Assembly (NCBI GenBank): GCA_964396385.1
Contig: CAYNFH010000002.1
Span: 1,047 to 65,046, forward strand
Length of the DNA stretch: 64,000 nucleotides
Direction: 5' to 3'
From: an uncultured Chthonomonadaceae bacterium
Lineage (GTDB): Bacteria; Armatimonadota; Chthonomonadetes; Chthonomonadales; CAJBBX01
Made by a program: the position numbers and the translations under genes. Below are positions 1,931-52,779 of this stretch, in pieces (the first letter of the stretch is position 1; the number at the start of each line of letters is the position of its first letter). Under the pieces are notes generated by a model. The model searched no databases. It was not told where the DNA came from and saw nothing but the letters and a program-made list of their open reading frames with translations.

Positions 1931-2053
1931 GGAGTTAGGAGCCCTCACCCCATCCCCCGATATACCGGAAGGCCGTGCGCGCTGGAGGCCCTCACCCCGG
2001 CCTTCGGCCACCCCTCTCCCAAGAACAGGAGAGGGGGAGAAGGGGAAAGGCCG

Positions 2054-2270
2054 GAGTCTAGAGTCGCGAGTCGAGAGAACGGATTCCTCAGGAGGGCCGG
2101 TGGGTATGCACCCTGTAATCTTCGCGTGAGATCGTTGTCGCAAATCTGGCGCGGCGGCGCCACATTGCGGGCGGAGTCGAGAGTCGAGAGAGCGGATTCA
2201 GGAGGAGGGGCGGCGTGAGACATTGTCTCAATTTGGCGCTGCGACGCCAGATTCGAGTCCTCCGCCTCGG
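2054..2270. repeat. Two tandem ~100-118 bp composite units: GAGTCGA heptamer array, CGGATTC core, then a short hairpin
   Basis: Unit 1 starts gagtctagagtcgcgagtcgagagaacggattcc and unit 2 starts gagtcgagagtcgagagagcggattc. Both continue through ...gtgaga...gtc.caa.t.tggcgc...gcgcca.att.cg. Confidence 0.7.
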
Positions 2271-12810: not shown

Positions 12811-15548
12811 TCCTTCTCACGACTATGTCAGCCCACCCCGCCCATAGCGTCTTCTACCCGCCTGCGCTGGTGGCACGGGCGCGGGAGAACATCCGGCGCG
12901 GGGGATGGGCCGCCCAGGAGGGAGACCGGCTGGTGGCGGCGGCCCAGCCGTGGATGCGCATGCCGGACGACGAGCTGTGGCAGCTCATGTTCGGGAACAC
13001 CATCCGCAGGAGCTGGATGGTGTGGTCGAACGGGTTCTGCCCTGCCTGCAAGCAGCCGGTGCCCATGTACACCTGGGAGATAGACGCCCTCCGCACGCCG
13101 TGGAAGGTCCGCTGCCCCCACTGCGGGGAGCTGTTTCCCAAGAACGACTTCGCCCGTTTCTACCGCTCCGGACTGGATGAACACGGCATCTTCGAACCGG
13201 CCAGGGCGGACCGGTCTCTGCTGTACAACACGGAGCACCCCGATCCGCACGACCCGCTCCACCTGTTCGGCGTGGATGATGGCGAGGGCTACGTTCAGGG
13301 CGACCATCGCTGGCGCTTCATCGGCGCTTACCTCATCTACGGCCAGTGGAAGCAAGCCGTCTATGGGGGCATCGTTCGCCTGGCGGCGGCATACACCTTG
13401 ACCGGCGACCGCGCCTATGCCCATAAGGCGCTGGTACTCCTCGACCGCGTGGCGGACCTCTACCGCACGTTCGACTTCGGCCGCGAAGGCGTGATGTACG
13501 AGGGCCCGCCCAGCGCCGGATACGTCTCCACGTGGCATGACGCCTGCGAGGAGACACGTGAGCTGGCTCTGGCGTGGGATCAGGTTCGGGACGCACTGGA
13601 CGGCGACACGGGCCTGGTGGCGTTTCTTTCCGAGCAGGCTCACCGCTACGCTCTCGACAATCCCAAAACCACAGCCGAAGACATCCGCCGCAACGTAGAG
13701 GACCGCATCCTGCGGGACGCGCTGGCGCATCGAGACAGGATCCACTCCAACTATCCGCGGACCGAGATAGCCGTGGCGACTATCCTCACCGTGCTAGGGT
13801 GGCCCGAGAACCGGCAGGAGGTGCTTAGCCTGCTGGATCCGGTGCTGGATAAGTCCACGGCCGTGGACGGAGTTACGGGCGAGAAGGGGCTGGCGGGCTA
13901 CACCGCTTTCACCATTCGCGGGGTTGCTCTGCTCCTGGCGCAGTACGACCGGATGGACCCCACATTTCTGCCGGAGATGCTGCGCCGCCACCCGCGCCTC
14001 CATGCCATGTTCCGCTTCCACGTGGATACCCACTGCCTCTCGAGATACTATCCGGAGGTGGGGGATTCCGGTGGCTTTGCACAGCCTGTACCCACTTACC
14101 AGGGAGTCTCCTTCAGCTCGAATCCCGGCCTGGAGCCGAGTATGTACGGCTTCCTCTGGAGGCTATACCAGATCACCGGTGATGCTGCGTTTGTCCAGGC
14201 TCTGTACCAGGCAAACGGAGGCAAAGCGGACGGGCTGCCGTACGATCTGTTCGCAAAGGAGCCTCCGGCGTTCCAGCGGGGCGTACTGCAGGTCATCGCT
14301 CGCGAAGGTGTCGAGCCGCGGCTGCGCAGCGTCAACCTGAAGGAGTGGCATCTCGCGATACTCCGCTCCGGGCAAGGCGCGAACAGGCGGGCCGTGTGGT
14401 TGGAGTACGACAGCGGCGGGCCGCACGGCCACAAGAACGGCCTCAACCTGGGGCTGTTCGCGCACGGGCTGGATCTGCTGCCGGACTTCGGCTATCCGCC
14501 AGTCCAGTATGGCGGATGGTCCTCTCCCCGCGCCAACTGGTACCGTGCCACCGCGGCCCACAATACGGTGGTCGTGGACGGCCGGAACCAGCCCGACGGC
14601 GCGGGGACGTCCACGATCTGGGCGGACGGCGAGCGGTTTCATGCCGTCCGCGGGAACGCTCCAGCGCTGAACGGCGGGCACGAGTACGAGCGGACCATCG
14701 CGCTGGTGGACGTCTCCGACCGGGACGCCTACGTGGTGGACCTGTTCCGCGTGCAAGGCGGAGCGGACCACGCCATGTTCCTGCACGGTCCCTTCGGTAC
14801 GATCCAGGTCGAAGGCTTACCGCGCTCCCCTGCCCCGGAGTATGGACACGACGCGCTACTGCGCGACTTCCGCGGCGGGACACCCGCGGCGGAGAGCTGG
14901 TCCGCAGAATGGAATGTGGAGGACCGGTACCATGTGGCGTTGCCGGGCGCGCAAGTGCGTCTGCGCTGTACCGAACTGACCCGTGGCGCTCGGGGTTTTA
15001 CCTGCGAAGCCTGGGTCTCGCCCAGCGGCTTCCAGCAGACCGAGGAGGCCTGGATCCCATGCATCGTGGTCCGCCGCGGTAAGGAGGACGGAGGACCGAG
15101 GATGGGGGACGGACGGATCCCCCAGGCGCTGACGTCTACTTTTGTGTCCGTGCTGGAACCGTACGAGGGCTCTCGCGCTGCAAAGTCCATCCGCAGGCTG
15201 GATCCGGACGGGCAGGATTCCGAGGCGGTCGTGGAGGTCGGGCTTTCGGACGGGCGGCGTGACCTGCTGGCGGCACAAATGACCCAGGGTGCCCTCACGG
15301 AGCGAGGTTGGCGCCTGCATACGGACGCGGAGCTGTGCCATGTCCGGCGCGCCACGGATGGGCACGTGGAGCACATCGCCCTTTGCCACGGCAGCTTCCT
15401 GCAGGTGGGAGTGGTAAGACTGACGCTAACTGAGCCGGTAGAATTCGTGGAGGTGGCACTGGAGGGCAGCGGCGCCCGGATCGTGGGCGACAATGGTGCG
15501 ATCGTGAAGACGCTGACGGTTCGCGGGCGCACCGTCCCGGTGCGATGA
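12795..15548 (+). CDS. Heparinase II/III-like polysaccharide lyase family protein with N-terminal Cys4 ribbon
   Basis: GGPHGHKNGLNLGLFAHGLDLLPDFGYPPVQY...AAHNTVVVDGRNQ is the heparinase II/III C-domain signature. The ribbon is CPACKQ...CPHCGE. TTG 12795 overlaps the upstream stop; alternative ATGs are at 12807 and 12825. Confidence 0.8.
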   Translation: MLIPMILLTTMSAHPAHSVFYPPALVARARENIRRGGWAAQEGDRLVAAAQPWMRMPDDELWQLMFGNTIRRSWMVWSNGFCPACKQPVPMYTWEIDALRTPWKVRCPHCGELFPKNDFARFYRSGLDEHGIFEPARADRSLLYNTEHPDPHDPLHLFGVDDGEGYVQGDHRWRFIGAYLIYGQWKQAVYGGIVRLAAAYTLTGDRAYAHKALVLLDRVADLYRTFDFGREGVMYEGPPSAGYVSTWHDACEETRELALAWDQVRDALDGDTGLVAFLSEQAHRYALDNPKTTAEDIRRNVEDRILRDALAHRDRIHSNYPRTEIAVATILTVLGWPENRQEVLSLLDPVLDKSTAVDGVTGEKGLAGYTAFTIRGVALLLAQYDRMDPTFLPEMLRRHPRLHAMFRFHVDTHCLSRYYPEVGDSGGFAQPVPTYQGVSFSSNPGLEPSMYGFLWRLYQITGDAAFVQALYQANGGKADGLPYDLFAKEPPAFQRGVLQVIAREGVEPRLRSVNLKEWHLAILRSGQGANRRAVWLEYDSGGPHGHKNGLNLGLFAHGLDLLPDFGYPPVQYGGWSSPRANWYRATAAHNTVVVDGRNQPDGAGTSTIWADGERFHAVRGNAPALNGGHEYERTIALVDVSDRDAYVVDLFRVQGGADHAMFLHGPFGTIQVEGLPRSPAPEYGHDALLRDFRGGTPAAESWSAEWNVEDRYHVALPGAQVRLRCTELTRGARGFTCEAWVSPSGFQQTEEAWIPCIVVRRGKEDGGPRMGDGRIPQALTSTFVSVLEPYEGSRAAKSIRRLDPDGQDSEAVVEVGLSDGRRDLLAAQMTQGALTERGWRLHTDAELCHVRRATDGHVEHIALCHGSFLQVGVVRLTLTEPVEFVEVALEGSGARIVGDNGAIVKTLTVRGRTVPVR

Positions 15549-17470
15549 TCGATCCGACCTCCAGCCCGCTTCCAGAATCGCCCCAGCCGAAGCCTTCGCC
15601 CAGTCCTTTGCGCATCCGGGCGCGGGCGATTGCGGTCACCTTCGCCGCGCAGGCGGTCCTGATCGCGTGGACGGCGGACAGCGAGATCGCGCGCGGGATC
15701 TACCTCATCTGCTATGCCCTGATGATGCCGACGGTGCTCTACCTGCTGGCCGCACGGCTCCTGCAGGGATGGCTGGAGCGGCACGAGGTGCTGTTCAGCT
15801 ACGTGGTCCTCACCGGCACGCTGCCGATTATCGGCTTTGGCGCAATGCGGTTCCTGCTGCCCGGCGCGGGCTATCTGCCCTACTTCTCGGAGACCCAGCC
15901 GCAGTGGGCGCGGTACCTGGGCGCGGCGGCCCGCCTGCCGGTGCTGCACGATCCGGCGGCCATCCGCGGGCTATACCGCGGCGCGGAGGGCGTGCCGTGG
16001 GGCGCCTGGCTGCCGTTCATCGGGTTCTGGAGCGTGTACCTGCTGGCGCTGAGCGGCGTCTGGCTCGGCCTGGCAGCCCTGCTCCACCGCGTGTGGATCC
16101 GCCAGGAGCGGCTGACGTTCCCGGTAGCGGTCCTCCCTCTCCAGCTCACCGACCCGCGCGACGACGTGCTTCACCGCCCGCTCTTCTGGCTGGGCTGCGC
16201 CATCCCGGCCGTGATGCAGAGCCTGCTGGCGCTGCACGACTGGTTTCCCGCGGTACCCGCCGTGCAGCTCAAGGCGTTCGACGTGCGGCCACTATTCTTC
16301 ACCTCCCCGCCCTGGAGCTCCATCCCGGATATCTCCATCGGCTTCTACCCCATGGCCATCGGGCTGGCCTACTTCGTGCCCAGCCATGTGAGCCTGAGCT
16401 GCTGGCTCTTCTGGCTGGTCGCCAAGCTCTCCTACGTGGGCGGAGCGATGGCGGGCCTGGACTCGGGCGGGGCGGGCTCCTCGCGGTTCCCGTTCAAGGA
16501 GGAGCAGGCGGCGGGCGCCTGGATCGCGTTCGGGCTGATGGCGCTGTGGACGGCCCGCCGGTCTCTCCAAAGCGCCCGATCGGACTTGTCAGACCGGGCG
16601 GACAGGTCTGACAATGGGCAGATTCGACTCTGGGCTGGTGGCGCAGTGGCCTGCGGCGGCGTGTGCATCCTGATGATGCTGGCGGCAGGCATGACAGGTG
16701 CGATGGCCGCGCTGGTCCTGACGGTCTACGTGCTGTACGTGGTGAGCGGAGCGCGGGTCCGGGCGGAGGCCGGGGGGCAGTGGACCTTCGCGCCGGCCCT
16801 GTGGACGCCGTACAGAGTGGCAACCGCGGCGCTCGGCTCGCGGGACCTCGGGCTCCAGCCTCTGGCGGCGGGGGCGCACTTCGACTTGGTCCACGTGGAC
16901 ATCCGGGGTCAGTCGCTCCCCTACGTGCTGGAGGGGCTGAAGATCGCGGACTCCGCGGGGATTCCCTGGCAGACGGTTCTCCGATGGGTGGGGCTGGGCA
17001 CGGTGACGGCGCTGGCGCTCGGCTGGTGGAGCAGCCTGAGCAACTTCTACGCGGTGGGCGCGACGACGGCACATGGGAATGCGTACGTCCTCACCAAAGC
17101 GCGCATCGAGATGGACCAGATGCACGCGGCTGCCAACAGCCACGCGGGTCCCGACACGCCGGGGCTGGGGGCCATGGTCTTCGGGGCCACAGTAACGCTG
17201 CTTCTGGCGGCGCTCCGCGCTCGCTTCTCCGGCTTTCCGCTGCATGCGGTGGGTTACGTGCTGGCGAATACCTTCACGATGAACGCGTTTTTCGTGCCAT
17301 TCCTCCTGGCCTGGGCGGCCAAGGTGTTCATCCAGCGGCTTGGCAACATCACGTACCGCCGGAGCATCCCCTTCTTCGTGGGGCTCATCCTGGGCGATAT
17401 TGCCACGCAGGCGGGCTGGGCCATTATCGGGCGGATACTGGACAAGCCGGTGTATCAGTTTCTGTCGTGA
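15545..17470 (+). CDS. Large polytopic integral membrane protein of unknown function (possible transporter)
   Basis: 641 aa with many long hydrophobic segments. The ATGA start/stop overlap with the lyase gene implies translational coupling. No family motif recognised. Confidence 0.75.
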   Translation: MIDPTSSPLPESPQPKPSPSPLRIRARAIAVTFAAQAVLIAWTADSEIARGIYLICYALMMPTVLYLLAARLLQGWLERHEVLFSYVVLTGTLPIIGFGAMRFLLPGAGYLPYFSETQPQWARYLGAAARLPVLHDPAAIRGLYRGAEGVPWGAWLPFIGFWSVYLLALSGVWLGLAALLHRVWIRQERLTFPVAVLPLQLTDPRDDVLHRPLFWLGCAIPAVMQSLLALHDWFPAVPAVQLKAFDVRPLFFTSPPWSSIPDISIGFYPMAIGLAYFVPSHVSLSCWLFWLVAKLSYVGGAMAGLDSGGAGSSRFPFKEEQAAGAWIAFGLMALWTARRSLQSARSDLSDRADRSDNGQIRLWAGGAVACGGVCILMMLAAGMTGAMAALVLTVYVLYVVSGARVRAEAGGQWTFAPALWTPYRVATAALGSRDLGLQPLAAGAHFDLVHVDIRGQSLPYVLEGLKIADSAGIPWQTVLRWVGLGTVTALALGWWSSLSNFYAVGATTAHGNAYVLTKARIEMDQMHAAANSHAGPDTPGLGAMVFGATVTLLLAALRARFSGFPLHAVGYVLANTFTMNAFFVPFLLAWAAKVFIQRLGNITYRRSIPFFVGLILGDIATQAGWAIIGRILDKPVYQFLS

Positions 17471-17520
17471 GTCGAGAGTCGTGAGTCGTGAGACCGGATC
17501 CGGGTGTTCAGGTGTTCAGG
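17467..17520. repeat. Heptamer-array element: (GAGTCGW)n - GACCGGATCCGG - (GTGTTCA)2
   Basis: gtgagtcgagagtcgtgagtcgtgagaccggatccgggtgttcaggtgttcagg; the stop codon of the membrane-protein gene lies in the first unit. Confidence 0.85.
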
Positions 17521-19461: not shown

Positions 19462-20709
19462 ATGACTTTGGCGATTGACGTGGAACGGCCGGCGGTGGCG
19501 GGGGGCGCGCCGGCCAAGACTCGGCCCTACGGCAAGGAGCCGCGATACGGAGCGGAGGAGCTGCGCGAGCTGGAAGAGGCGCTGGCGCAGGGCACCCTCT
19601 TCTACGCGCAGGGCCGCAAGGTTAAGGCGCTGGAGGAGGAGTTCGCGCGGCGCAACGGCGTGGGGTTTGCGGTCGCGTGCTCCAGCGGCACCTCCGCCAT
19701 CCACGCCGCCCTGGCCGCGCTGGAGGTCGGGCCCGGCGATGAGGTCATCACCTCCCCCATCACGGACGCCGGCACCATCGTGCCCATCCTCTACCAGGGC
19801 GCAATCCCGGTGTTCGCGGACCTGCATCCGCACACCTACTGCCTGTCGCCCGCTTCGGTCCGGGAGGCCATTACGCCGCGCACTCGTGCCGTTATCGCGG
19901 TGCACCTGGGCGGCAATGCCTGCGACCTGGACGCGCTGGCGGACCTCTGCCGCCGCCGCGGCGTCGCGCTCATCGAGGACTGCGCGCAGGCCCTCGGCGG
20001 CCGGTACCGCGGGCGCTCAATAGGTACTATCGGGAGGATAGGTTGTTTCTCGCTGAACGAGTTCAAGCACATCTCCTGCGGCGACGGGGGTCTCGTCATC
20101 ACGGACGATGAGGCACTGGCGGTGCGGCTCCGGCTGGCGACTGACAAGGGGTATGACCGCCGGCCCGAAGGGCCGGTGCGCAGTCCCACCTTCCTGGCCA
20201 ACAACTACCGCATGACGGAGCTGCAGGGCGCGGTCGCGCTCGCCCAGCTCCGCAAACTGGACAGCATTGTGGAGCGCCGCCGCGCCTGGTGCTCCGCGCT
20301 CACGCATCGCCTGCGCGGCCTGCCCGGTATCCACCTGCCGGAAGTGACGCCCGGCTGCAAATCGTCCTGGTGGTTCTACATGTTGCGCGTGGTCCCGCAA
20401 GAGCTAGGCGCGGACGCCACTACTTTCGCGCAGGCCCTCGGGTCCGAAGGGCTCCCGAGCTGGGCGCACTACATCGGCCAGTGCGTCTATGAAAAGCCGC
20501 TGCTGGCCGAGCACCGCGCGTTCGCCAAGGGAGAACATCCGTACACGGCGCGCGAGTACCGGCATGGTATCTGCCCCACCGCCGAGGCCATCCTGGACAC
20601 GTGCGTGGTCCTCAGCGTTAATGAGGCGTACACGGAGGAGGACCTGGAGGAGACGGCGCGGGCGATCCGGCGGAACGCGGCATGGTTCCGGTCCAGGGAT
20701 GAAGGATGA
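19462..20709 (+). CDS. DegT/DnrJ/EryC1/StrS family PLP-dependent aminotransferase
   Basis: GGAGAAG lies before ATG 19462. Contains VACSSGTSAIHAALAAL, ITSPITDAG and the active-site Lys region SLNEFKHISCGDGG. Confidence 0.9.
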   Translation: MTLAIDVERPAVAGGAPAKTRPYGKEPRYGAEELRELEEALAQGTLFYAQGRKVKALEEEFARRNGVGFAVACSSGTSAIHAALAALEVGPGDEVITSPITDAGTIVPILYQGAIPVFADLHPHTYCLSPASVREAITPRTRAVIAVHLGGNACDLDALADLCRRRGVALIEDCAQALGGRYRGRSIGTIGRIGCFSLNEFKHISCGDGGLVITDDEALAVRLRLATDKGYDRRPEGPVRSPTFLANNYRMTELQGAVALAQLRKLDSIVERRRAWCSALTHRLRGLPGIHLPEVTPGCKSSWWFYMLRVVPQELGADATTFAQALGSEGLPSWAHYIGQCVYEKPLLAEHRAFAKGEHPYTAREYRHGICPTAEAILDTCVVLSVNEAYTEEDLEETARAIRRNAAWFRSRDEG

Positions 20710-20802
20710 GGGATGAACGGCGGAGCGGGTGAGCGGGCGAGTGGGCGAGCGGGCGAACCCGAAGTCCGGTCTCACGACTCACGACTCACGACTCACGACT
20801 CG
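20696..20802. repeat. Triple heptamer-array element: (GATGARG)3 - (GGGCGAG)4 - CCCGAAGTCCGG - (TCACGAC)4
   Basis: Read directly. It spans the DegT stop and the first ~30 codons of the 20713 ORF. Confidence 0.9.
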
Positions 20803-21858: not shown

Positions 21859-22991
21859 AAAGTACGGGATCGGCATGGAGCGTTTCGCGGCATCTTCCAG
21901 TTCCTGTCGCGGAGGCGTTGGCGCGGGGGGTGGTGGTTCCGGCGATGCCGCTGGCGCTGGATGCGCGGCGCAGGCTGGACGAGCGGCGGCAGCGCGCCCT
22001 CATCCGATACTACGCGGACGCGGGCGCCGGCGGGCTGGCGGTAGGAGTACACACCACTCAGTTCGCCATCCGCGAGGCCGGGCTCTATCCCCCGCTCCTG
22101 GCCCTCGCCCGGGTAGAGATGGACCGCGCGGACAGCAGAGCGGGCGAGCGGGCGATTGCGGAATCCGCTCTCACGACTCACGACTCACGACTCACGACTC
22201 CGCTTGTCCGCATCGGTGGCATCTGCGGTGGCACGCAGCAGGCGGTGGCGGAGGCGGAGCTGCTGCGCGAGCATGGATTCCACGCCGGGCTCCTGAGTCT
22301 GGCGGCGCTGAAGGATGCGGATGACGCCGCGCTCTTGGCGCACTGCCGGGCCGTGGCGGAGGTCATCCCGGTGATCGGCTTCTACCTGCAGCCGGCTGTA
22401 GGCGGGCGGCGGCTCCCGTACCGATTCTGGCGCGAATTCGCGGAGATTGAGCGGGTGCTGGCGATAAAGATCGCGCCGTTCGACCGCTACGCCACGCTAG
22501 ACGTGGTGCGGGCCGTCGCCGAGTCCGCGCGCGAGGAGATCGCGCTCTATACGGGCAACGACGACAGCATCGTCCACGACCTGATCACCCCCTTCCAATT
22601 TGAAGTGGAGGGTGGGACCGTGGAGCGGCGCATTGTGGGCGGGCTGCTGGGCCACTGGGCGGTGTGGACGCGCCGCGCCGTGGAGCTGCTGGAGGAGTGC
22701 CATCGGGCGGTGGATGCGGGTGCTATTTCGGCCGAGCTGCTGCGGAAGGGCGAGGAGGTGACAGACTGCAACGCCGCTTTCTTCGACGCCGCGAACGGCT
22801 ACGCGGGCTGCATCGCCGGGCTGCACGAGGTGCTGCGCCGGCAGGGGCTGCTGGAGGGATTGTGGCTCCTGGATCCGGACGAGCGGCTCAGCCCCGGCCA
22901 ATTGGAAGAGATAGACCGTGTCTACCGCGCATACCCGCACCTCCACGACGACACCTTCGTGGCCGCCAATCTCCCGCGCTGGCTCTCCTGA
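21849..22991 (+). CDS. DHDPS/DapA-like class I aldolase family protein carrying an in-frame repeat insertion
   Basis: Family-like VVPAMPLALDARRRLDERRQRALIRYYADAGAGGLAVGVHTTQF and GICGGTQQAVAEAELLREHGF. The segment SRAGERAIAESALTTHDSRLTTP is encoded by the repeat element. Confidence 0.65.
   Translation: MNPESTGSAWSVSRHLPVPVAEALARGVVVPAMPLALDARRRLDERRQRALIRYYADAGAGGLAVGVHTTQFAIREAGLYPPLLALARVEMDRADSRAGERAIAESALTTHDSRLTTPLVRIGGICGGTQQAVAEAELLREHGFHAGLLSLAALKDADDAALLAHCRAVAEVIPVIGFYLQPAVGGRRLPYRFWREFAEIERVLAIKIAPFDRYATLDVVRAVAESAREEIALYTGNDDSIVHDLITPFQFEVEGGTVERRIVGGLLGHWAVWTRRAVELLEECHRAVDAGAISAELLRKGEEVTDCNAAFFDAANGYAGCIAGLHEVLRRQGLLEGLWLLDPDERLSPGQLEEIDRVYRAYPHLHDDTFVAANLPRWLS
22138..22202. 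repeat. Composite heptamer element (GGGCGAG)2 - TTGCGGAATCCGC - (TCACGAC)4 inside the DapA-like CDS
   Basis: gagcgggcgagcgggcgattgcggaatccgctctcacgactcacgactcacgactcacgactccg. Same composition as 20723-20802. Confidence 0.9.
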
Positions 22992-38900: not shown

Positions 38901-41011
38901 GGCGAAAGGTGAAGCCGCCATGGCGCCTCGATGGTGGTCTCCGTCGGCAGGGGCTCGCGAATCTGGGGCAGGAGTATGATCCCGGGATTTATCTTGATGA
39001 TGGATTCCGGAGGACGAGTGAGTGCCACGGGCGACTTCAGCGTGCTCTGTAGCAGTGCGGTCGCCGGCGGCTTCGGAGGCGGCGTAACCTGGTGGGACTG
39101 GAGGTCCTTGCCGCGACTCGCAAGCGTCGTCTGGAGCTTGTTTATCCTCAGACGGTTCGCATCAGCCGCCGCAAAGGCCGCGACGCTGACCTGCTTATCG
39201 TTTAGGATGTTGCCAAGCTGGCCCAGGAAAAACACAGGGGCAGGCGGCGGCTCCGCGACGGGTACTACGCTCGGTGTGAGCTTGGTCCAGTCAAGCAGCG
39301 CCTCGATCGTGTATGGGATCGCGTTGACGGACTGCGGCACGAAGAACGCCAGCCGCGACTCCCCCGCGAGACGGGATGCAGCGGGCAGCGTGATGGGCTC
39401 ATCTCCACTCTTGCTCGCGTCCGGGTCTTTCGCGCCCGGTGGATTCTTGTCGCCCGGCTTCACGCCCGGCTGGGTTTCAAAGAAGGCCTGTTCGGCGATG
39501 TTCTGAGACGGGAAGTGAACGATCAGGAAAGCGCCCTCGCTCGAGCTCGTCCTTTCCAGTCGGGGCCCGCTGCCGTCGCTCTTGAAGTTGAGGTTCACCA
39601 TCTCTATCTCGAGCGCCAGCATGTCGTCGGGGCGGGTGATTTTCATGCTGGGGCCCTGGCGGCCCAAGGCCATGAGGATTGCCGGGCTCAACTTGATCTG
39701 AAGCCTGGCCTGAGGCTGAAGGGCCGCTCGCTGTCCCAACCCGTAGGATGCGAGCTCAATGTGGGCATCCTGCGGCATGGGGCCGTAATTGACGATGGCG
39801 CCCTCCAGCGGGGCCGCGAATCCAAGCAGCGCCGGAGCGACGTGCAGGCGGTGCGCGCGGTCCTCGTCCCCCACCAGCTCGAACGGCGCCGCGCCGTCGC
39901 GGTGGCCTACGAGCACGCTGCAGCCGTTGCCGTGCAGCCAGCGGGGCTCGTCCTCATAATCCGCCAGCAGCGCGTGGCGCTCCCTGCCGCCGTCGAACCC
40001 GATGGCATAGCGGACGTTGCGCAGCCCAACGGAAAACGGCGCGCCGTCATCCGCCAGGGCGACATCGCCCGGCTCATACCGCGCCGCACTTCGGGAGGAG
40101 GTGGACTCGCCCAGCAGCGCGTAGCGCCGCCCGCCCTCCGCGGTCTCGGAGCACTCCAGCCGCAGCGTGTCGAGCAGGCCGTCTTCCTGCACCAGACGCC
40201 CAATGCGCGGCTTGGCAATGCGCGGCTTGAGCGGCCAATTCTCCTCCCCCCGTCTGAGCGATACGAGCGTCCGCCGGCTATCCGGGGACAGCATCGCGCT
40301 TGCCGCACCCGGAGCCAGCAGCGCAATCTCCACGCACTGCGCCTCGACGGCCCCATCCGGCGTATCCGCCCGCGCAATGCTGCCCTCTGACGACTGACGA
40401 CCGACGACCGACGACAGGCTGAATGTCCAGTCCGGCCGGAAGCTGGCCTGTGCTCTGCCCCCGAGCCGAAGGCCATACCTGCCATTGAGCGCCCACTCAT
40501 AAGCCTGGAGGCGGACCGGAGAAGCCGCCTCCGCCTGCCCCAACAGCCACCGCTCGAAGGGCGCCTCACACCGGAATCCCCCGACCGCCATCTGGAGCGA
40601 CATCTTCCATCCAGCGCCTGAGCGGCGAAGCTCACAGGTGAAGTCGGCGGGAAGGTCTGTGCCGGGGTACCTGCCGCCTTCCAGCGCCACTCGGATGTGC
40701 CGTGCGCTCTCCTCTACCTTCAGCTTGGGAGTGCCGGAGAAGCAGCGGGCGTCCACCACCCACCGTTCCTTTCCTTCCAGCTTGAATGCGATGCGGTTAT
40801 CGGAGCGCTCCACCTCCAGCGGCGCTCGCAATGTGTCCCCCAGCGCACGGGCGACCGGCGAGACCGCGGCCGCAGCGGCGCCGGTGAGGCCGAGCAGGTC
40901 GCGGCGGGAGAGGACGAAGCGGCCGGGCGGGACTTGTTGGGTTGTGGCCGCGCGCGCGCCGGGGAGCCGGCGGGTGCGGAGCGCGTTCAGGTCCAGACGA
41001 ACAGCTTTCAT
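35936..41011 (-). CDS. Giant-operon ORF1 (1691 aa), uncharacterised, with a twin-arginine (Tat) signal
   Basis: N-terminus has FVLSRRDLLGLTGAAAAAVSPVARALG. The body is long and non-repetitive. The C-terminal ~330 aa are Gly-rich with alternating hydrophobic strands. Confidence 0.85.
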   Translation of the reverse strand: MKAVRLDLNALRTRRLPGARAATTQQVPPGRFVLSRRDLLGLTGAAAAAVSPVARALGDTLRAPLEVERSDNRIAFKLEGKERWVVDARCFSGTPKLKVEESARHIRVALEGGRYPGTDLPADFTCELRRSGAGWKMSLQMAVGGFRCEAPFERWLLGQAEAASPVRLQAYEWALNGRYGLRLGGRAQASFRPDWTFSLSSVVGRQSSEGSIARADTPDGAVEAQCVEIALLAPGAASAMLSPDSRRTLVSLRRGEENWPLKPRIAKPRIGRLVQEDGLLDTLRLECSETAEGGRRYALLGESTSSRSAARYEPGDVALADDGAPFSVGLRNVRYAIGFDGGRERHALLADYEDEPRWLHGNGCSVLVGHRDGAAPFELVGDEDRAHRLHVAPALLGFAAPLEGAIVNYGPMPQDAHIELASYGLGQRAALQPQARLQIKLSPAILMALGRQGPSMKITRPDDMLALEIEMVNLNFKSDGSGPRLERTSSSEGAFLIVHFPSQNIAEQAFFETQPGVKPGDKNPPGAKDPDASKSGDEPITLPAASRLAGESRLAFFVPQSVNAIPYTIEALLDWTKLTPSVVPVAEPPPAPVFFLGQLGNILNDKQVSVAAFAAADANRLRINKLQTTLASRGKDLQSHQVTPPPKPPATALLQSTLKSPVALTRPPESIIKINPGIILLPQIREPLPTETTIEAPWRLHLSPHGGSGWSHASAPISFDGRTELWHTRLAVMNNGKPDESDAYYRTVRAVWSPDCPSNTAAKPGHYMYPGDAINPFRTSLDADDRYEIVRLSSDFTGLKTPTGKPVTPSAIPVDRLMLSSIGAWIELDGHWEEVQGLDVEEWQHRATMGRDQFVKVVYRGYLMPFGHRASLVKITERKVVLVNSQRIAVNRQRMFIVVREPEKSYPDGLQMFGGRNTPFTDVQILTKVTPMLDDPTRDPAKNSLAGHGQDAFWPRVGGEDFRFVLIGTDRNGYQTQFTMPLGWVESSLALPSGNPMPLLGIMFDYNRPENAARRIGPTNGAKIVFADSLKLGDTRLETESITWKAQPPQTVAAGRVQFYPALEMAEVNVPALRAFADLNNATSVDYPDLFLKNGFGPGNASELYVQVAGAPVNVTFSGQKPDGSMAANGDKTGGVGSPNMNMTALSRKYGPVGGAVPGKIALRDDARPGECAFGDGTDWNFDPKQFFANNGAILGCLVLADLVKGGVGGDGKNVPKIHSVEYPNDDSEENKKKSGVEIILDWAPEIIAIPPSANYADDPPAASTLFVPKDVKNCFSLKAKIEVIKPTAAPTNPSASLSATQAAANIAKNIKDMAGTKPPAPTWSVEGKLNEFKMALFGCIEIDFNYFKFTSSPESSFKPDPSIKDDGIKFMGALAFVNKLKDIIPGMGSSSSSGGGGHADTDTMLPAACAMPNVGGFDIGPDIHPTTSPLGIYAGVKVGIPTISVGLFSLQNIKVKAGVGIPFTGDPVNFAFDFCSQSDPFLLTVWLLGGGGWCHLLLDVHELQELTAGFQFGAMINFDITIASGGVYIKAGLTYSLKKPETVLAADGKTPLKDSHGKDVTRHPTDLTGYLQAGGYVSVLGIISLSLELYLGLEYVQNVDNSSSVTGTAQIEFHISILFFSATVGCTYTKTFAGSPAHTAALPVEDRRLASLTLPTGFALGQAPQGGTGKFHDQVDEPDWDAYCASFAFA
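40387..40418. repeat. Heptamer array (GACGACY)4 inside ORF1
   Basis: ctgacgactgacgaccgacgaccgacgacagg, encoding SSVVGRQSSEG. Confidence 0.8.
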
Positions 41012-43278: not shown

Positions 43279-43293
43279 CTCTATCCTCCTTGA

Positions 43294-43337
43294 GGACCAC
43301 AGACCACAGACGACAGATCACTCCGGAATCCGTGGTC
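43294..43337. repeat. Heptamer array (CCACAGA)3 + TCCGGAATCCG core
   Basis: ggaccacagaccacagacgacagatcactccggaatccgtggtc. Confidence 0.85.
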
Positions 43338-43431
43338 CCCCAACCCTCGAATCAGTGGTGGGGCTGGCACTCCGGCCCATGGTCCGTGGTCCATGCGCGC
43401 ATCGGGTAGCATAGCGGAGAATCCCTTAGCA

Positions 43432-47358: not shown

Positions 47359-48357
47359 TTATGCCCGGCTTACGTCGCGGTCTGCCTGTGGATCGCCCGC
47401 GGAGGTGTGGCCGGCGTAGACCAGGGCCCACCGGAGGGCGAGGCCGCCGACCAGACCGAGTACAGCGGCCGTTACCTTGAGCCACGGGGCGGCGCGGCGG
47501 AACTTGCGGCCCGCCGCCTGCGCGATAGCTGGCGCGATCATCCCGGCGCCCACCGCTCCACCCCACAGGTGCGGCGCGTAGGGTCCGGAGGTGAGCGGCT
47601 TCGCCAGCGAGCCAGCGGCGGAGAGGAAGCCCGCTACCGTCGCGGCCTCCGCGACGTGGGTGACCTGCTCGATGGTTTCGATCGTGTCTGCCTGCTCCGT
47701 CCGCTGCTGCTCCTCCTGCGGCTTACCGGCCGCCAGTAGAAGGTGGATGGCGGAGGCGCCCGTGCTGAGCGCTCCGGTACTGAAGAGCGGGCCGATCCAG
47801 GGATTCCGCGCCCAGATGGGCGTGGCGGTCGTGCTCAGCAGCACGCCGGTGTACCCGGCGACCAGCAGCGCCAGCGGGATGCCCGCTGCGTCAGACAGAA
47901 GGCCGATGAGGCGATGAGCTGATGAGCCGATGAGGCGTCCCGGATTCCGAACGTCCTCTCCCGTCGGACCGCTGCGCTCGAATAACTCGTCCAGCGCCGC
48001 AAGTGTGACTATTCCGCCGTAGCCGGTGAGCGCCCAGGCGCCGAGGTTCATGGGAGAGCCGGGCTTGAAGACCCGAAGCATGTAGTGGAACCGCTTATGG
48101 TCCCCCAGGTCCTTGATGAGCAGCGGCGCGCAGGGCAGCATGGTGGTCCAGGCGACCATCGTGCCGGCCCGGGTCACGTCGCGGTAGCGCGGCCCCCCGA
48201 ACCGCTCGGCCATGCGCGCCAGCAGATAGGCCCCCGTGGAGAGACCACCGAGGAAGAAATAGGTAGCGATCTCCCAGCCCCATACGGGCGGCTTCAGCAT
48301 CGGCACGTCGTAGTACGCCGGCGCCGGCGGTTCCCGCGTCACCAGTGCTTCGGTCAA
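47359..48357 (-). CDS. NrfD/PsrC-type integral membrane quinone-interacting subunit of the formate dehydrogenase operon
   Basis: YYDVPMLKPPVWGWEIATYFFLGGLSTGAYLLA is the NrfD family N-terminus. TTG start with GAAGGGAG SD. It carries a heptamer-array insertion. Confidence 0.8.
   Translation of the reverse strand: MTEALVTREPPAPAYYDVPMLKPPVWGWEIATYFFLGGLSTGAYLLARMAERFGGPRYRDVTRAGTMVAWTTMLPCAPLLIKDLGDHKRFHYMLRVFKPGSPMNLGAWALTGYGGIVTLAALDELFERSGPTGEDVRNPGRLIGSSAHRLIGLLSDAAGIPLALLVAGYTGVLLSTTATPIWARNPWIGPLFSTGALSTGASAIHLLLAAGKPQEEQQRTEQADTIETIEQVTHVAEAATVAGFLSAAGSLAKPLTSGPYAPHLWGGAVGAGMIAPAIAQAAGRKFRRAAPWLKVTAAVLGLVGGLALRWALVYAGHTSAGDPQADRDVSRA
47903..47953. repeat. Heptamer array (GATGAGN)4 + CCGGATTCCG core inside the nrfD-like CDS
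   Basis: ccgatgaggcgatgagctgatgagccgatgaggcgtcccggattccgaacg, encoding RLIGSSAHRLIGLL. Confidence 0.85.
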
Positions 48358-48421: not shown

Positions 48422-49261
48422 CTACTCATCGCCCTTGGCAAATAGCACTGCGGAAAGGGCGGTGAGGGCGATGCCGGCGGCCAGGCTGAAGAGGTACCGG
48501 GCGCCCATCCCGTCCTTGGGCCTGCGGGGCTTCGCCGGCAGGTTGTACGCATTGGGGTGGTCCTTGAGCAGGAAGAAAGCGTTCAGCCGACTGTAGGAAT
48601 CGGTCTCCTCTTCTCCATAGAGGTAGGCGTCTGTCTCGCCGCGCGCGTGCAGCTCCTCCACGCGTCTGCGCGCCTTGTCGCGGAGCTCGTTCACCGGTCC
48701 AAACTGGATGGATTCCGTCGGGCATGCTTTGGCGCAGGCCGGCTCCAGACCGCCTCGCTGCCGGTCGTAACAGAGCGTACACTTGTGGACGTGGCCGTCC
48801 ACCTTGCTCCGGCCCAGCACCCCGAACGGGCAGGCCACGATACAGTAGCCGCACCCATTGCAGATATCCGGCTGGACGTAGACGTCGCCGAACTCGTTGT
48901 AGATGAGCGAGCCGGTGGGGCAGGCGTTCTGGCACGGGGCGTCTTCGCAGTGCTTGCAGACGTCGCTCATCATCAGCCAGCGGGGCCGGCCACGCGCGTC
49001 CGTCTGCTCCGTGAAGGCGACGTGCCGCCAGGTGGTCTCGGAGAGATGGCCCGTGTTGTCGTAGCTGTTGCCGGTCCACTTCAGCCCGTCCGAGGGGAGC
49101 TGGTTCCACTGCTTGCACGCCACCTCACACGCCTTGCAGCCGATGCACAGCGTGGTGTCCGTGAAGAAGCCCATCTGCGGCTTCTCACGGCGCGCATCCT
49201 GCACGCGCAGCACCTCGTCTTGCGGCGCAAGGGCGAAGACGTTGCGTATGTCTGCTAACAA
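48422..49261 (-). CDS. Formate dehydrogenase iron-sulfur (beta) subunit, FdnH/FdoH-like, with C-terminal membrane anchor
   Basis: CIGCKACEVACKQWN, CKHCEDAPCQNACP, CNGCGYCIVACPF and CTLCYDR ferredoxin motifs. C-terminal hydrophobic helix. TTG start with GGAG SD. Confidence 0.9.
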   Translation of the reverse strand: MLADIRNVFALAPQDEVLRVQDARREKPQMGFFTDTTLCIGCKACEVACKQWNQLPSDGLKWTGNSYDNTGHLSETTWRHVAFTEQTDARGRPRWLMMSDVCKHCEDAPCQNACPTGSLIYNEFGDVYVQPDICNGCGYCIVACPFGVLGRSKVDGHVHKCTLCYDRQRGGLEPACAKACPTESIQFGPVNELRDKARRRVEELHARGETDAYLYGEEETDSYSRLNAFFLLKDHPNAYNLPAKPRRPKDGMGARYLFSLAAGIALTALSAVLFAKGDE

Positions 49262-49276
49262 AGCAGTCTCCTAGAG

Positions 49277-49343
49277 ATTTTCAATTTTCGATTTTCAATT
49301 GCCGGCCCGCAAGTCCGAAATGGAAAATTGGAAATTGAAAATC
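49277..49343 (-). other. 24-bp AT-rich imperfect hairpin formed by two complementary heptamer arrays around a GC-rich loop, between fdhA and fdhB
   Basis: attttcaattttcgattttcaatt (49277-49300) pairs with aatggaaaattggaaattgaaaat (49319-49342). That is 21/24 Watson-Crick pairs plus 2 G-U, with an 18-nt loop gccggcccgcaagtccga. Confidence 0.8.
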
Positions 49344-52300
49344 ACCTGAACTGTCCTTCCGGCTGCGCAGCCCTCGGGGTATCCGGGGCCGGTTCGCGAG
49401 TGGGCCAGGGAGCGTAGGGCTGCGTCGGCTCCGTGGGCGTCTCCTCCACCCGGCCGGGGCGCACCTGGCAGGAGAACACCTTGCCCTCGTGCATGCTCAC
49501 GTTGGGATCCGCCACCAGCGAGGTAAGGTCGTTGGCGTTGCTGCCCACGGTCTCCCCGGCGTAGCCCCAGTGGAACGGCAGCCCGATCTGGTGAATGGTG
49601 CGCCCCTCCACCACCATCGGGCGAATGCGGCGGGTCACCATGGCGCGCGCAGAGATGGAGGCGCGCGCCGTGCTCACGGTTACCCAGCTCCCATGCTGGA
49701 TGCCCCTCTCGGCCGCCAGCTCCGGGCTCATCTCCACGAACATCTCCGGCTGGAGCTCGTTGAGCCAGCTATTGAACCGGCTCATGGGGCCGCTCAGGTA
49801 GTGCTCCGTGAGCCGGAACGTGGTGCCGACAATCGGGTACTCCTCGGTCGGGCCCTGCGCGATAACGTTGAGCGGCCCCTCGAAGAGGCGAACGGTGGGG
49901 CTCTCCTGCTGCTTGTACAGGGGATTGCGGACGGGAGACTCCACCGGCTCGTAGTGGGTGGGGAATGGCCCGTCCTTGGTGCCGCCCGGCGCGAAGATCC
50001 AGCCGCGGCCATCCGGCTTCATGATGAACGGCGCGTCGCCTGCGATGGCCTCCATGCCCTTCGCTCCGGGGCTTGGGCGGTAGTCCGGCGGCTTGTTAGG
50101 CTCGAAGTCCGGCTCATCGATCCCGACCCACTTCCGCTCCTTCTCGTCCCACCAGATGTACTTCTTCCGCTCCGACCACGGACGGCCCTGCGGGTCTGCC
50201 GAGCAGCGGTTGTACATCATGCGACGGTTGTGCGGCCAGGCAAAGCCCCACTCCGGCTGCACCCGGTTGTTGGTGATCTTCCGCTCCCGCGCCCGGTTCC
50301 GGTTGTACGCGGGGAAGACGCCGCTGTAGATCCAGCAGCCGCAGGCGGTAGTCCCATCGTCCTTGCACTCCGAAAAGCCGCTCAGGAGCAGGGGCTTGCC
50401 GTTGTTGGGATCGGTCTGATTCAGGTGGTATCCATTAACCTCCTGCATCACTTTCTCTACGTCCGGCTCGCCTTCTATGCGGGTCATACGGCCGTCCGGC
50501 AGTCGGGGCGGATCCTCGTGCTCGTACTCCCACGTGAGGTTCTGGATGGCCGCGTCCCGGGGATCCAGGGAGCCGGCGTACATCGCCTTGAGCCGCTTGC
50601 CCAGGTTATAGACAAACCAGGCGTCCGAGCGACAGTCGTCCGGAGGGTCCACGGCCTTGTCGTGCCACTGGACCAGGCGCTGCGTGTTGGTAAAGCTGCC
50701 CTCCTTCTCCGGGGCGGCGGCGGCCGGCACGAAGAAGACTTCCGTCTTGATCTGGTCCGGCGGCGGGCCGGTCGGATCGTTTTTCCAGAAAGTAGCGCTC
50801 TCCGTCTCAAACCAGTCCGCCACCACCAGCCAATCGAGCTGGCGGAGTCCCGCCCGGTGCAGGCCCGCGTTGGGGCCGCCGCCGCCAGGGTTCTGGCCGA
50901 AGAGGAAGTACCCTTTCATCTCGCCGCGACTCATACGGTCGAAGGTGGGGAGCTGCGAGTAGTCGCCATCCAGCCGCGGGATCCAGCCGAAGCCCCAGTC
51001 GTTCTCCTTCGTCGCGGCGGGGCCGAACCACGCCTTGAGCAGGCTCACCGCGAATTTCGGGAAGTTAGCCCAGTAGCCCTCTGTCATTCCCTCATAGTCG
51101 CAGTAGCCCTGTAGGGTGCTATGGTGCTCGTCCGCGATGGGCTGCGGCAGGTAGCCAGGAAGCAGATCGTAGAGGGTCGGGATGTCCGTGGAGCCCTGGA
51201 TGGAGCAGTGGCCGCGGAGCGCCATAATGCCTCCGCCCGGGCGGCCCATGTTGCCCAGCAGAAGCTGGATAATGCCGGCCGTGCGGATGATCTGAACTCC
51301 CGTGGTGTGCTGCGTCCAGCCGACGGCGTAGCAGATAGCGCTGGTCCGATCCGGTCCCGAGTTGCGGCAGAGCGTCTCCGCGACCTCGATTAGCTCTTCC
51401 GGCGAGCAGCCGCAAATGTCCGCGACCACCTCCGGCGTGTACCGCTCGTAGTGGCGGCGCAAGTACTGGAATACGGAGCGCGGGTTCTGCAGAGTCTCGT
51501 CCCGTGGGGGCTGGCCACCCGGCTCCTCCGTGGGACCGGACTTGCGCGAAGTATGGGAGCTGGCGCCGCCCATCAGGCCGGGGCCGTGGACGCCGTGGCG
51601 CCCGGACTGGGATTTGGCCTCTCCCCCACCGGCGCGCGTCTCACCTTTCGCCGCTTTACGGCCCTTGGCCTGGGCCTTCTCCTCCGCCGTGGACCCGGCG
51701 TACCCCCACTTGCCCTTGGCGCTGTCGTAGGTATGCTGCTCCGGGTTGTAGCCGCTGAAGATGCCCCCAAGCTCCTCCGCGTCCTGGAACCCCTCCTCCA
51801 CGATGGTGGACGCGTTGGTAAAGGCGAGCACGTACTCCTTGAACCACCTGTCGCGGGTCAGGATGTAGTTGATGATGCCGCCGAGGAAGGCGATGTCACT
51901 GCCGGCGCGGATCTGCACGTGCCGGTTGCACATGGCGGATGTGCGCGAGAAGCGCGGGTCCACGTGGATGAGCGTGGCGCCCTTCTCGCGCGCCCGCATG
52001 GGATAACGGAACCCTACCGGATGGGCCTCCGCCATGTTGGAGCCCATGATCAGGATGCAGTCGCTATTCTCAAGGTCTTGCTGGAAGGTGGTGGCCGCTC
52101 CGCGTCCAAAGGAGGCGCCCAGACCGGGCACCGAGGCGGAGTGTCATATACGGGCCTGGTTTTCGATGGAGAGAACCCCCAGCCCGCCGCTGAACAGCTT
52201 CTTGATAAGGTAGTTCTCTTCGTTGTCAAGCGTGGCTCCGCCGAGGGTCCCGAATGACTTTACAGGCGGGTTGTGGGGTATGCCGGTATTGGTTGAGGGT

Positions 52301-52779
52301 TGAGGGTTGAGGGTTGACAAGCCGGGATCCGGATTCCGCTCTCTCGGCTCTCGACTCTGGACTTTCGACTCCGGTTGCTCCCCCTCTCTCAGTTCCGCGT
52401 CTCGCGTCTCCTTCACGCGGCGCGCGATCTGTTCCATCGCCCACTCCAGCGTCCTCGTCTCCCACCGGTCGGAGTAGGGAGCACGGTACAGGACCTGGGT
52501 GATGCGGTGCGGGTTGACCGCGAGCTGATAGCTATTGGCGCCCTTGGGGCATAGCGTGCCCTCGTTGATGGGGCTGCGCGGGTTGCCCTCGATGTCTATC
52601 ACCTTGCCGCGTTTGGTGTAGACCAGCAGGCCGCATCCCACGGCGCAGTACGGGCAGACGCTCTCCGTGACGGTGGCGCCCTCTATGCGCGGATGCTTCT
52701 CGATGGACTGGGGGCTGTACGGCTGCGGCGGCTTCTGGGCCGCCTTATTCGCGTTGAGGCGGTACGGACTCAAGGCCAT
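49342..52779 (-). CDS. fdhA: Formate dehydrogenase catalytic (alpha) subunit, molybdopterin oxidoreductase, selenocysteine-containing (UGA at 52144-52146)
   Basis: The two track ORFs (49342-52131 and 52144-52974) are one gene: IENQARI-UGA-HSASVPGLGASFGRGA parallels E. coli FdnG/FdhF around Sec. N-terminal CPYCAVGCG Fe-S motif. GGAGGAG SD before ATG 52779. Confidence 0.9.
52098..52143 (-). promoter_or_regulatory. SECIS-like hairpin immediately 3' of the UGA
   Basis: mRNA is UGA CAC UCC GCC UCG GUG CCC GGU CUG GGC GCC. The upper stem GGUGCC/GGCGCC carries a CGGUCUG loop. GGUCUG lies the same distance from UGA as I recall for E. coli fdhF. An outer stem CUCCGC/GCGGAG is also possible. Confidence 0.65.
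52291..52374. repeat. Composite heptamer element (GAGGGTT)4 - GCCGGGATCCGGATTCCGC - (degenerate GAGTCGA)n inside the fdhA CDS
   Basis: ggttgagggttgagggttgagggttgacaagccgggatccggattccgctctctcggctctcgactctggactttcgactccgg, encoding ESKVQSREPRERNPDPGLSTLNPQPST. Confidence 0.9.

Follow-up and report, generated by a model that had tools for sequence, protein, structure and literature searches.

How does an 84-bp block of tandem heptanucleotides come to lie in frame within the gene of a formate dehydrogenase catalytic subunit, shortly before the codon for the catalytic selenocysteine (Sec)? The gene, which is of the fdnG/fdhA type, lies in a 64,000-nt stretch of DNA from an uncultured Chthonomonadaceae bacterium (assembly GCA_964396385.1, contig CAYNFH010000002.1, positions 1,047 to 65,046), called the window below. 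A first-pass annotation had read the block as a repeat element inserted in frame about 50 codons upstream of Sec in a FdnG/FdhA-type selenoprotein, and had left two outcomes, a tolerated loop or an inactive enzyme. The Sec codon is codon 212 and the measured distance is 49 codons. We think it probable that the block represents one copy from a short interspersed repeat family specific to the lineage, a copy that is tolerated in a loop of FdnG as what would be a neutral, selfish sequence. Membership of a genome-wide heptamer-array family, independent insertions into the same loop in other lineages and a stop-free variant of the repeat unit are observations that go beyond the first-pass annotation.

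Read on the minus strand from 52374 to 52291, the insert is exactly 28 codons long (codons 136-163) and encodes the peptide PESKVQSREPRERNPDPGLSTLNPQPST. Its order on the sense strand is CCG-(GAGTCGA AAGTCCA GAGTCGA GAGCCGA)-GAGA-GCGGAATCCGGATCCCGGC-TTGT-(CAACCCT)x3.9. Tandem Repeats Finder (TRF) assigned 52291-52317 to GGTTGAG x3.9 (100% matches) and 52341-52371 to CTCTCGA x4.4 (79% matches), and the spacer GCCGGGATCCGGATTCCGC is exact at 52321-52339, so the repeat composition first reported for the block was correct. The unit sequences were likewise right, although strands had been mixed in naming them: GAGGGTT and the core are plus-strand sequences and GAGTCGA is a minus-strand sequence, the gene itself being on the minus strand.

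The insert differs in composition from the gene around it. GC content at third codon positions (GC3) is 0.64 in the insert versus 0.87 in the remaining fdnG codons, and the lowest 28-codon GC3 windows among all 1145 codons are those on codons 135-149 (0.61-0.64 versus a mean of 0.86). Its codons AGA, CGA, TCA, CAA, and TTG are the rarest of fdnG. In the left array the family unit GAGTCGT is present as a degenerate variant without stops. Repeats of that consensus unit produce TGA in all three frames, whereas GAGTCGA gives no stop codon in any frame, and in the fdnG copy each of the four T positions at which the consensus units would form TGA is occupied by A, as in the intergenic copies at 2050-2215. 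These are signs of non-coding DNA that has passed through selection, the composition of the insert resembling that of the non-coding copies and not that of the surrounding codons.

These copies define a family. A module of ~45 bp, (GAGTCGW)n-GAGA-SCGGAWTCCG, is present at six loci in the 64 kb, with unrelated flanks and nhmmer E values of 3e-7 to 4e-14. A hidden Markov model (HMM) seeded with five copies (that in fdnG and those designated E1, E2, E3, and E5 in Table 1) recovered a sixth, E6, which was outside the seed (2050..2095, E=1e-8). The 84-bp stretch is a member of a repeat-element family, and the earlier description of it as a repeat element is borne out by the five other places in the window where its left module and core are found. 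The palindrome CGGAWTCCG has 10 sites in the window versus 0.96 expected (0 of 100 shuffles reach 10), and five of these sites adjoin arrays. Markov simulations predict 0.7 period-7 and 0.25 period-8 arrays for the window, which has 15 and 4, respectively; periods 4-6 and 9-12 are at background. The second array varies by copy (GTGTTCAG, GCCCGCTC, CAACCCT, or AGGAGGA), and a small set of units (GGCGTTCA, TCATCCY, and SAACCCT) recurs elsewhere in the window. Since the second array varies and a few units recur, the family is modular. It appears to be undescribed.

That the block entered fdnG is read from comparison with homologues. The 120 best matches out of 5.8 billion proteins were taken, of which 107 could be scored for loop length. 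From the anchor WA(L/M)(D/E)xIA to GTLGGAT there are exactly 27 aa in 95 of the 107 and 57 aa in the host FdnG. The short canonical loop is also present in 27 of 27 orthologues aligned over their full length (from GTDB genomes of Gemmatimonadota, Acidobacteriota, Armatimonadota, Planctomycetota, Chloroflexota, Proteobacteria, and Actinomycetota), the host FdnG alone having 30 extra residues. Against the PDB enzymes, FdnG residues 130-175 remain unaligned, with 46 residues opposite 16. The nearest FdnG relatives in sequence collections are 64-67% identical; they have loops of 34-38 aa without the element and have the flanking codons in common (the best relatives in a scan of genome contigs are 56-62% identical). 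A homologous loop in orthologues had been named at the outset as the finding that would speak against an insertion, and no orthologue has one, so that objection falls away. On these alignments the 84-bp stretch is an in-frame insertion relative to the orthologues, as first proposed, with the frame kept.

The N-terminal 211 residues were modeled with AlphaFold using the 120-sequence alignment. In the model a helix (residues 111-133; predicted local distance difference test (pLDDT) 85-94) is followed by coil (134-177; pLDDT ~62-68) and then by a strand toward the active-site segment, and the model resembles formate dehydrogenase structures over its first ~100 residues. The insert is thus placed in the coil and is presumably surface-exposed.

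The same loop has been expanded elsewhere. Metagenomic FdnG relatives at three other loci, L001-L003, have different heptamer-array insertions in exactly this loop, and such insertions are at this site in the relatives P0005, P0025, and P0104; the peptides encoded by the expansions of different lineages are unrelated in sequence. The site thus appears to be length-variable and permissive, and is predicted to be unstructured. If the loop were under selection as a functional extension (a docking or linker segment, say), with the DNA periodicity a by-product of coding a low-complexity peptide, independent expansions at one site in several lineages could also follow, through selection for length. 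However, the period of the DNA is 7 and not 3, the codon usage of the insert is the worst in the gene, the same DNA module occupies non-coding positions, and the lack of relationship among the expansion peptides points the same way. We regard such an extension as extremely improbable.

Period-7 arrays are concentrated in few genomes among 83 loci (1.3 Mb). Two Chloroflexia metagenome-assembled genomes (MAGs) stand out with 16 and 10 arrays in 20 kb, and one Chthonomonadaceae MAG is also array-rich; in such genomes the arrays usually occur as inverted pairs. The FdnG of one Chloroflexia MAG (L028, 12118-12880) has three in-frame array insertions, in loops other than that of the host studied here. 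A related locus (L025, 12110-12775) has arrays at the same FdnG sites but with other units, for example CGCACTC versus CGCAATC in every unit, which suggests concerted turnover. In a scan for the heptamer only, (GAGTCGT)n with n of at least 3 was found in more than 120 metagenome contigs (including L088-L167) of 36 to 74% GC, without this core, and often as inverted pairs 40-60 nt apart. The nearest named relatives of the window FdnG and COX1 are from Chthonomonadaceae/Armatimonadetes, Planctomycetota, and Gemmatimonadales, and the three closest COX1 relatives (66-68% identity) are on short contigs with few arrays.

This distribution bears on a local origin, by which heptamer-specific slippage during replication built up the arrays in place, in a length-tolerant loop, with no copying from elsewhere. 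Arrays clearly evolve by slippage and homogenization: the CAACCCT copies are perfect, and the two Chloroflexia loci share sites at which the arrays differ by one base per unit. Unrelated arrays in the same loop of L001-L003, and core-free (GAGTCGT)n in contigs of widely differing GC, fit such an origin as well, and a passage of PMC4692102 that cites Mrazek 2007 ascribes heptamer excess to polymerase slippage. The core is what slippage does not account for. Six loci with unrelated flanks have GAGA-SCGGAWTCCG attached to the same array, a combination that slippage cannot repeatedly create, and the insert has the composition of non-coding copies and not that of the codons around it. An origin in place is therefore unlikely in our judgment, and dispersal of the family would be copy-based.

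Several observations weigh against a dispersed unit that was copied into fdnG and is tolerated there. The right-hand array is different in every copy, which blurs the unit of dispersal. No consistent flanking direct repeat that could be a target-site duplication (TSD) was found at the copies (CAACC precedes the fdnG copy and is found at its end, a spacing of 82 bp that is incompatible with an in-frame event), no clear terminal inverted repeats (TIRs) were found in the window, and no transposase of any kind, including REP-associated tyrosine transposases (RAYTs) and Y1 transposases, was detected by Pfam in the 64 kb of genome. The exact module plus core gave 0 matches in JGI metagenomes. No empty-site allele from a close relative was found, the nearest relative being 67% identical, so the insertion event is reconstructed from distant orthologues. 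The AlphaFold model extends over the N-terminal 211 residues and is of moderate confidence (predicted template modeling score 0.48). Finally, FdnG has Ser at codon 435 (51475-51477; motif P-R/H-C-V), where 27 of 27 orthologues have Cys.

Table 1 Features of the fdnG locus, repeat-family copies and other in-frame arrays. Positions are those of the window except in the last three rows, which give positions on the loci named.
Feature	Positions	Strand	Remarks
fdnG/fdhA-type catalytic subunit, 1145 codons	49342..52779	-	ATG 52779; in-frame TGA (Sec212) 52146-52144; stop 49342
84-bp element, fdnG codons 136-163	52291..52374	-	absent from 27 full-length orthologues
Left array (sense) CCG GAGTCGA AAGTCCA GAGTCGA GAGCCGA GAG	52341..52374	-	TRF; alignment with E1-E3 and E5; nhmmer E=1e-11
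Non-repetitive core AGCGGAATCCGGATCCCGGCTTGT	52318..52340	-	palindrome CGGAWTCCG at 52330-52338
Right array (CAACCCT)x3.9, perfect copies	52291..52317	-	TRF 100% matches
E1: (GAGTCGT)x4-GAGA-CCGGATCCGG-(GTGTTCAG)x2	17461..17520	+	nhmmer E=1e-12; begins at stop codon of upstream gene
E2: (GAGTCGT)x4-GAGACCGGACTTCGGGTTC-(GCCCGCTC)x4-(TCATCCY)x3	20695..20801	-	nhmmer E=2e-13
E3: (GAGTCGT)x4-GAGAGCGGATTCCGC-(GCCCGCTC)x2	22140..22200	-	nhmmer E=4e-14
E5: (GAGTCGA)x2-GAGAGCGGATTC-AGGAGGAGGGG	2170..2215	+	nhmmer E=3e-7; stop-free unit as in fdnG copy
E6: GAGTCTA GAGTCGC GAGTCGA GAGAACGGATTCC	2050..2095	+	nhmmer E=1e-8
SECIS-like hairpin, GGUCU apical loop	52085..52143	-	directly 3' of UGA; fold -25.2 kcal/mol, z only -1.1
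4Fe-4S subunit, FdnH-like, same operon	48422..49261	-	Pfam Fer4_11, Fer4_7
NrfD-type membrane subunit	47359..48357	-	Pfam NrfD
AT-rich heptamer-array hairpin (ATTTTCA)x3, spacer, (GAAAATT)x3	49272..49345	-	between fdnG stop and Fe-S subunit start
Period-8 array (TCATCGGC on sense strand) + CCGGATTCCG core in NrfD gene	47902-47950	-	variable loop
Second in-frame insertion, (GGAGGAC)x4.4 + CGGATCCCC, in heparinase II/III-like gene (open reading frame 12795-15548)	15083..15122	+	absent from 17 homologues
L001 loop insertion	860-1010		(CACCCCT)n + CTGACCC units
L002 loop insertion	1980-2100		GTGRTGA arrays, perfect 28-nt palindrome, CCACTCA arrays; palindrome flanked by complementary arrays
L003 loop insertion	400-580		own arrays

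The Ser at codon 435 leads to the second outcome left by the first-pass annotation, an inactive enzyme. On this reading the insertion would disable or impair the enzyme, and fdnG would be a young pseudogene or in the course of loss. The catalytic Sec comes 49 codons after the 28 extra residues, and the canonical D-x-x-G-x-x-L-N hairpin of the loop is missing, including an invariant Gly. Against this stand features of a gene that looks functional. The host protein matches tungsten and molybdenum formate dehydrogenases in the PDB (1h0h of D. gigas, 6sdr and related entries of D. vulgaris, and 1kqf, the FdnG of E. coli) at E values of 1e-103 to 1e-123, and 26 of 27 orthologues have U in the Sec column, the other having C, in agreement with the FdnG/FdhA-type selenoprotein first proposed. 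The N-terminal Cys cluster motif CPYCAVGCG...CPKG is present, and Pfam finds PF04879 (Molybdop_Fe4S4) on the N-terminal fragment and PF00384 (Molybdopterin) and PF01568 (Molydop_binding) on the C-terminal part. The active site reads ARI-U-HSAS, with Sec followed by His, and the arginine of RG..QG is also kept. The frame is open over 1145 codons, with GC3 of 0.87 outside the insert. Of 236 positions without variation among the other 27 orthologues, the host FdnG differs at 4, a mid-range value for a set that spans 0 to 10; besides Cys435Ser, another of the 4 is the lost loop glycine. The nearest relatives without the element also lack the canonical hairpin, and comparable insertions are found in intact genes of other lineages. 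The genes of the partner subunits lie directly downstream of fdnG and are intact.

Directly 3' of the UGA is a predicted hairpin that resembles a selenocysteine insertion sequence (SECIS) and that would likewise be kept. With its GGUCU apical loop it is similar to the E. coli fdhF SECIS. Rfam at gathering thresholds gave no match for this hairpin, and its folding energy is not significantly below that of shuffles. To judge by all these features fdnG is intact, and the enzyme is most likely still active. We therefore consider inactivation quite unlikely, and of the two outcomes the tolerated loop is the one favored by the evidence.

An effect at the RNA level was also weighed: either the plus strand forms a G.U-rich hairpin in an antisense or regulatory RNA, or the orientation was selected so that the mRNA forms no hairpin. 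The plus-strand RNA, antisense to fdnG, folds at -45.1 kcal/mol (z -3.6; 0 of 200 dinucleotide shuffles are as stable), whereas the sense (mRNA) strand of the element is at background (-21.1 kcal/mol, z -0.3). The right-array units on the plus strand are G.U-complementary to the left array, and the hairpin arises from the pairing of GGUUGAG with CUCGACU, which in every pair of units involves 7 of 7 positions, including two G.U pairs. Antisense-only hairpins via G.U pairs are found in three in-frame elements, that of the window (52285-52380) and two of the Chloroflexia L028 FdnG (12290-12392 and 12790-12880). However, the in-frame elements of L001 and L002 fold on both strands, and with n=3 and these counter-examples the pattern is not significant. 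As the arrays are periodic, the strand asymmetry reduces to two transition differences per unit, and a same-strand outcome has roughly even odds, and so it is no evidence of function.

The other elements also speak against an RNA role, since most family copies fold no better than shuffles. E9 and E11 fold on both strands and the array at 43290-43360 on the minus strand only, and E1, E3, and E5 do not fold. A promoter and terminator scan around the element found no associated site, and Rfam and tRNA scans of the whole window gave no matches. We hold a function in RNA to be very improbable. As single-stranded DNA neither strand of the fdnG element forms a significant hairpin, and a DNA hairpin as a RAYT or IS200-type substrate is thus unsupported for this copy.

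The preferred explanation, one repeat-family copy tolerated in a loop, would run as follows. A family member consists of a tandem heptamer array (GAGTCGW), a short core around CGGAWTCCG and a second, variable array of 7- or 8-mers. Such a copy would have landed in, or been copied into, the fdnG coding sequence at the connector after helix 111-133 and before the strand toward the Sec active-site segment. It would persist there because its length is a multiple of three, because the GAGTCGA variant is stop-free, unlike the commoner GAGTCGT, and because a length-variable loop that is predicted to be unstructured tolerates extra residues. The 28 residues added in this way include much Pro, Glu, Arg, and Ser and are most likely carried along as a neutral passenger.

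A second gene of the window has acquired an array in frame. In the heparinase-like gene the insertion is a clean gain of 10 aa, GPRMGDGRIP. The period-8 array in the NrfD gene was considered as a further net insertion but is a doubtful one, as alignment with 29 orthologues gives a gain of only ~4-6 aa. A (GGTCGTC) array at 40380-40415 lies near residue 200 of a minus-strand open reading frame (35936-41011, 1691 residues) that has no Pfam family. Within FdnG itself a ~58-residue Gly/Ser/Lys-rich segment that is absent from the PDB enzymes (aa 362-419, 51523-51696) was suspected as a second element. It was rejected on finding a homologous segment in Chthonomonadaceae, Planctomycetota, Gemmatimonadales, and Acidobacteriota orthologues, which makes it an ancestral clade-specific insertion rather than a repeat element.

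Stop-containing arrays elsewhere in the window are intergenic or placed at the ends of genes. Five genes (ends at 17470, 20709, 21831, 61070, and 62474) have their stop codons inside period-7 or period-8 arrays; either the arrays landed in extreme 3' ends and brought new stops with them, or stop codons are preferred sites of insertion. The AT-rich hairpin downstream of fdnG, in a genome of 66% GC, has RNA fold z values of -6.9 and -4.2 on the two strands. Each family module has ~5 GANTC sites. A link to a methyltransferase through GANTC was dropped, since GANTC is at expectation in the window and is neither enriched nor avoided. GATC is under-represented in the window (272 versus 348 expected, z -3.9), as is GGATCC (31 versus 48, z -2.8).

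No twin-arginine export signal (RRxF) like that of E. coli FdnG is present in the FdnG N terminus MALSPYRLNANKAAQKPPQPYSPQ (52779-52680) or in that of close homologues, and the protein is therefore a FdnG relative that is probably not a periplasmic Fdh-N proper. The membrane partner is of the NrfD type and not a FdnI cytochrome b; with such a partner the complex may be oriented toward the cytoplasm or be unlike classical Fdh-N.

Short repeats that reside in frame in conserved genes are known from Rickettsia, where they are called Rickettsia palindromic elements (RPEs; Ogata et al. 2000, as summarized in passages of PMC10969869 and PMC2229807). The same passages describe several enterobacterial and neisserial transposable elements of the miniature inverted-repeat type (MITEs) that are likewise found in frame, with open reading frames holding stop-free versions; of the 107-bp Correia element only stop-free versions are inside open reading frames according to the account in PMC2229807. 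Like RPEs, the fdnG family is found both between genes and in frame in a conserved enzyme gene with the host protein apparently intact, and like RPEs and the Correia element the fdnG copy is stop-free and adds a peptide segment. In-frame residence of the MITE/RPE type adds 28 codons to fdnG and 10 to the heparinase-like gene. RPEs are 105-150 bp in length with conserved sequence and peptide, TIRs, and a stable stem-loop. In contrast, the window family consists of 7-nt arrays around a 9-nt palindrome with a variable right half, no TSD and no clear TIR, folding of the fdnG copy is confined to antisense RNA via G.U pairs, and the host is an uncultured high-GC bacterium and not Rickettsia.

Heptamer arrays have their own precedents. 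Excess of heptamers is known in cyanobacteria, Xanthomonas, and Chloroflexus (from passages of PMC4692102 and PMC6749651): simple-sequence repeats of GGGAATC and GGGGAYT in Xanthomonas and Nostoc (PMC4692102) and (GATAGRA)n satellites in Chloroflexus aurantiacus (PMC6749651). As these passages describe them, such repeats share with the window arrays the period of 7, about four units, a mostly intergenic location, sometimes inverted pairs, and lineage specificity. They are, however, single-unit families with no shared non-repetitive core and are described as intergenic, and those passages report no in-frame enzyme insertions.

The window family is also comparable to the repeats of cyanobacteria. 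Short tandemly repeated repetitive (STRR) heptanucleotide arrays were reportedly described in cyanobacteria by Mazel in 1990, and the small dispersed repeats (SDRs) of Nostoc are said to have been described by Elhai et al. in 2008 as short conserved repeats embedded in tandem heptamers. On that account the window family is similar in its excess of tandem 7-nt units, its frequent inverted pairs, and a short core between heptamer arrays. Unlike STRR and SDR repeats it belongs to a non-cyanobacterial host of 66% GC; its units GAGTCGT and CAACCCT differ from those that STRR1-3 are said to have, and its core differs as well. The feature of interest in the window family is its place in frame in a conserved respiratory enzyme.

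Repetitive extragenic palindromes (REPs) and bacterial interspersed mosaic elements (BIMEs), with their RAYT transposases (PMC3116915, PMC3733652), resemble the family in having short palindromic cores in mosaics with other motifs and many copies per genome. A REP is an extragenic imperfect palindrome of 20-40 nt with a GTAG or CGTC head, and heptamer arrays are no part of it, whereas the core in the window is a palindrome of 9-11 nt that has no such head, and the 64-kb window has no RAYT. The window element works like RPEs and MITEs and like heptamer repeats but is a member of none of these groups by sequence, host, or terminal features.

A broader proposal, which we consider a possibility though a doubtful one, is that an undescribed modular class of repeats (array, palindromic core, second array) is active in several non-cyanobacterial phyla (Armatimonadota-like, Chloroflexia, and others) and repeatedly colonizes enzyme loops in frame as a recurrent source of surface-loop sequence. 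Dispersal of the class would be tied to no known transposase, and insertions might be filtered against hairpins on the mRNA strand.

If the favored reading holds, non-coding repeat DNA can join a conserved respiratory selenoenzyme without loss of frame, and can do so repeatedly, the same FdnG loop having been struck independently in several lineages and other FdnG loops in Chloroflexia. Such insertions would form a natural map of insertion-tolerant positions, useful for the engineering of formate dehydrogenases and CO2 reductases. For annotation they call for caution, since low-complexity inserts of 10-30 residues in MAG proteins of such genomes can be repeat elements and not errors. For the organisms themselves the finding would extend intragenic repeats of the Rickettsia type and heptamer arrays of the cyanobacterial type to uncultured soil phyla.

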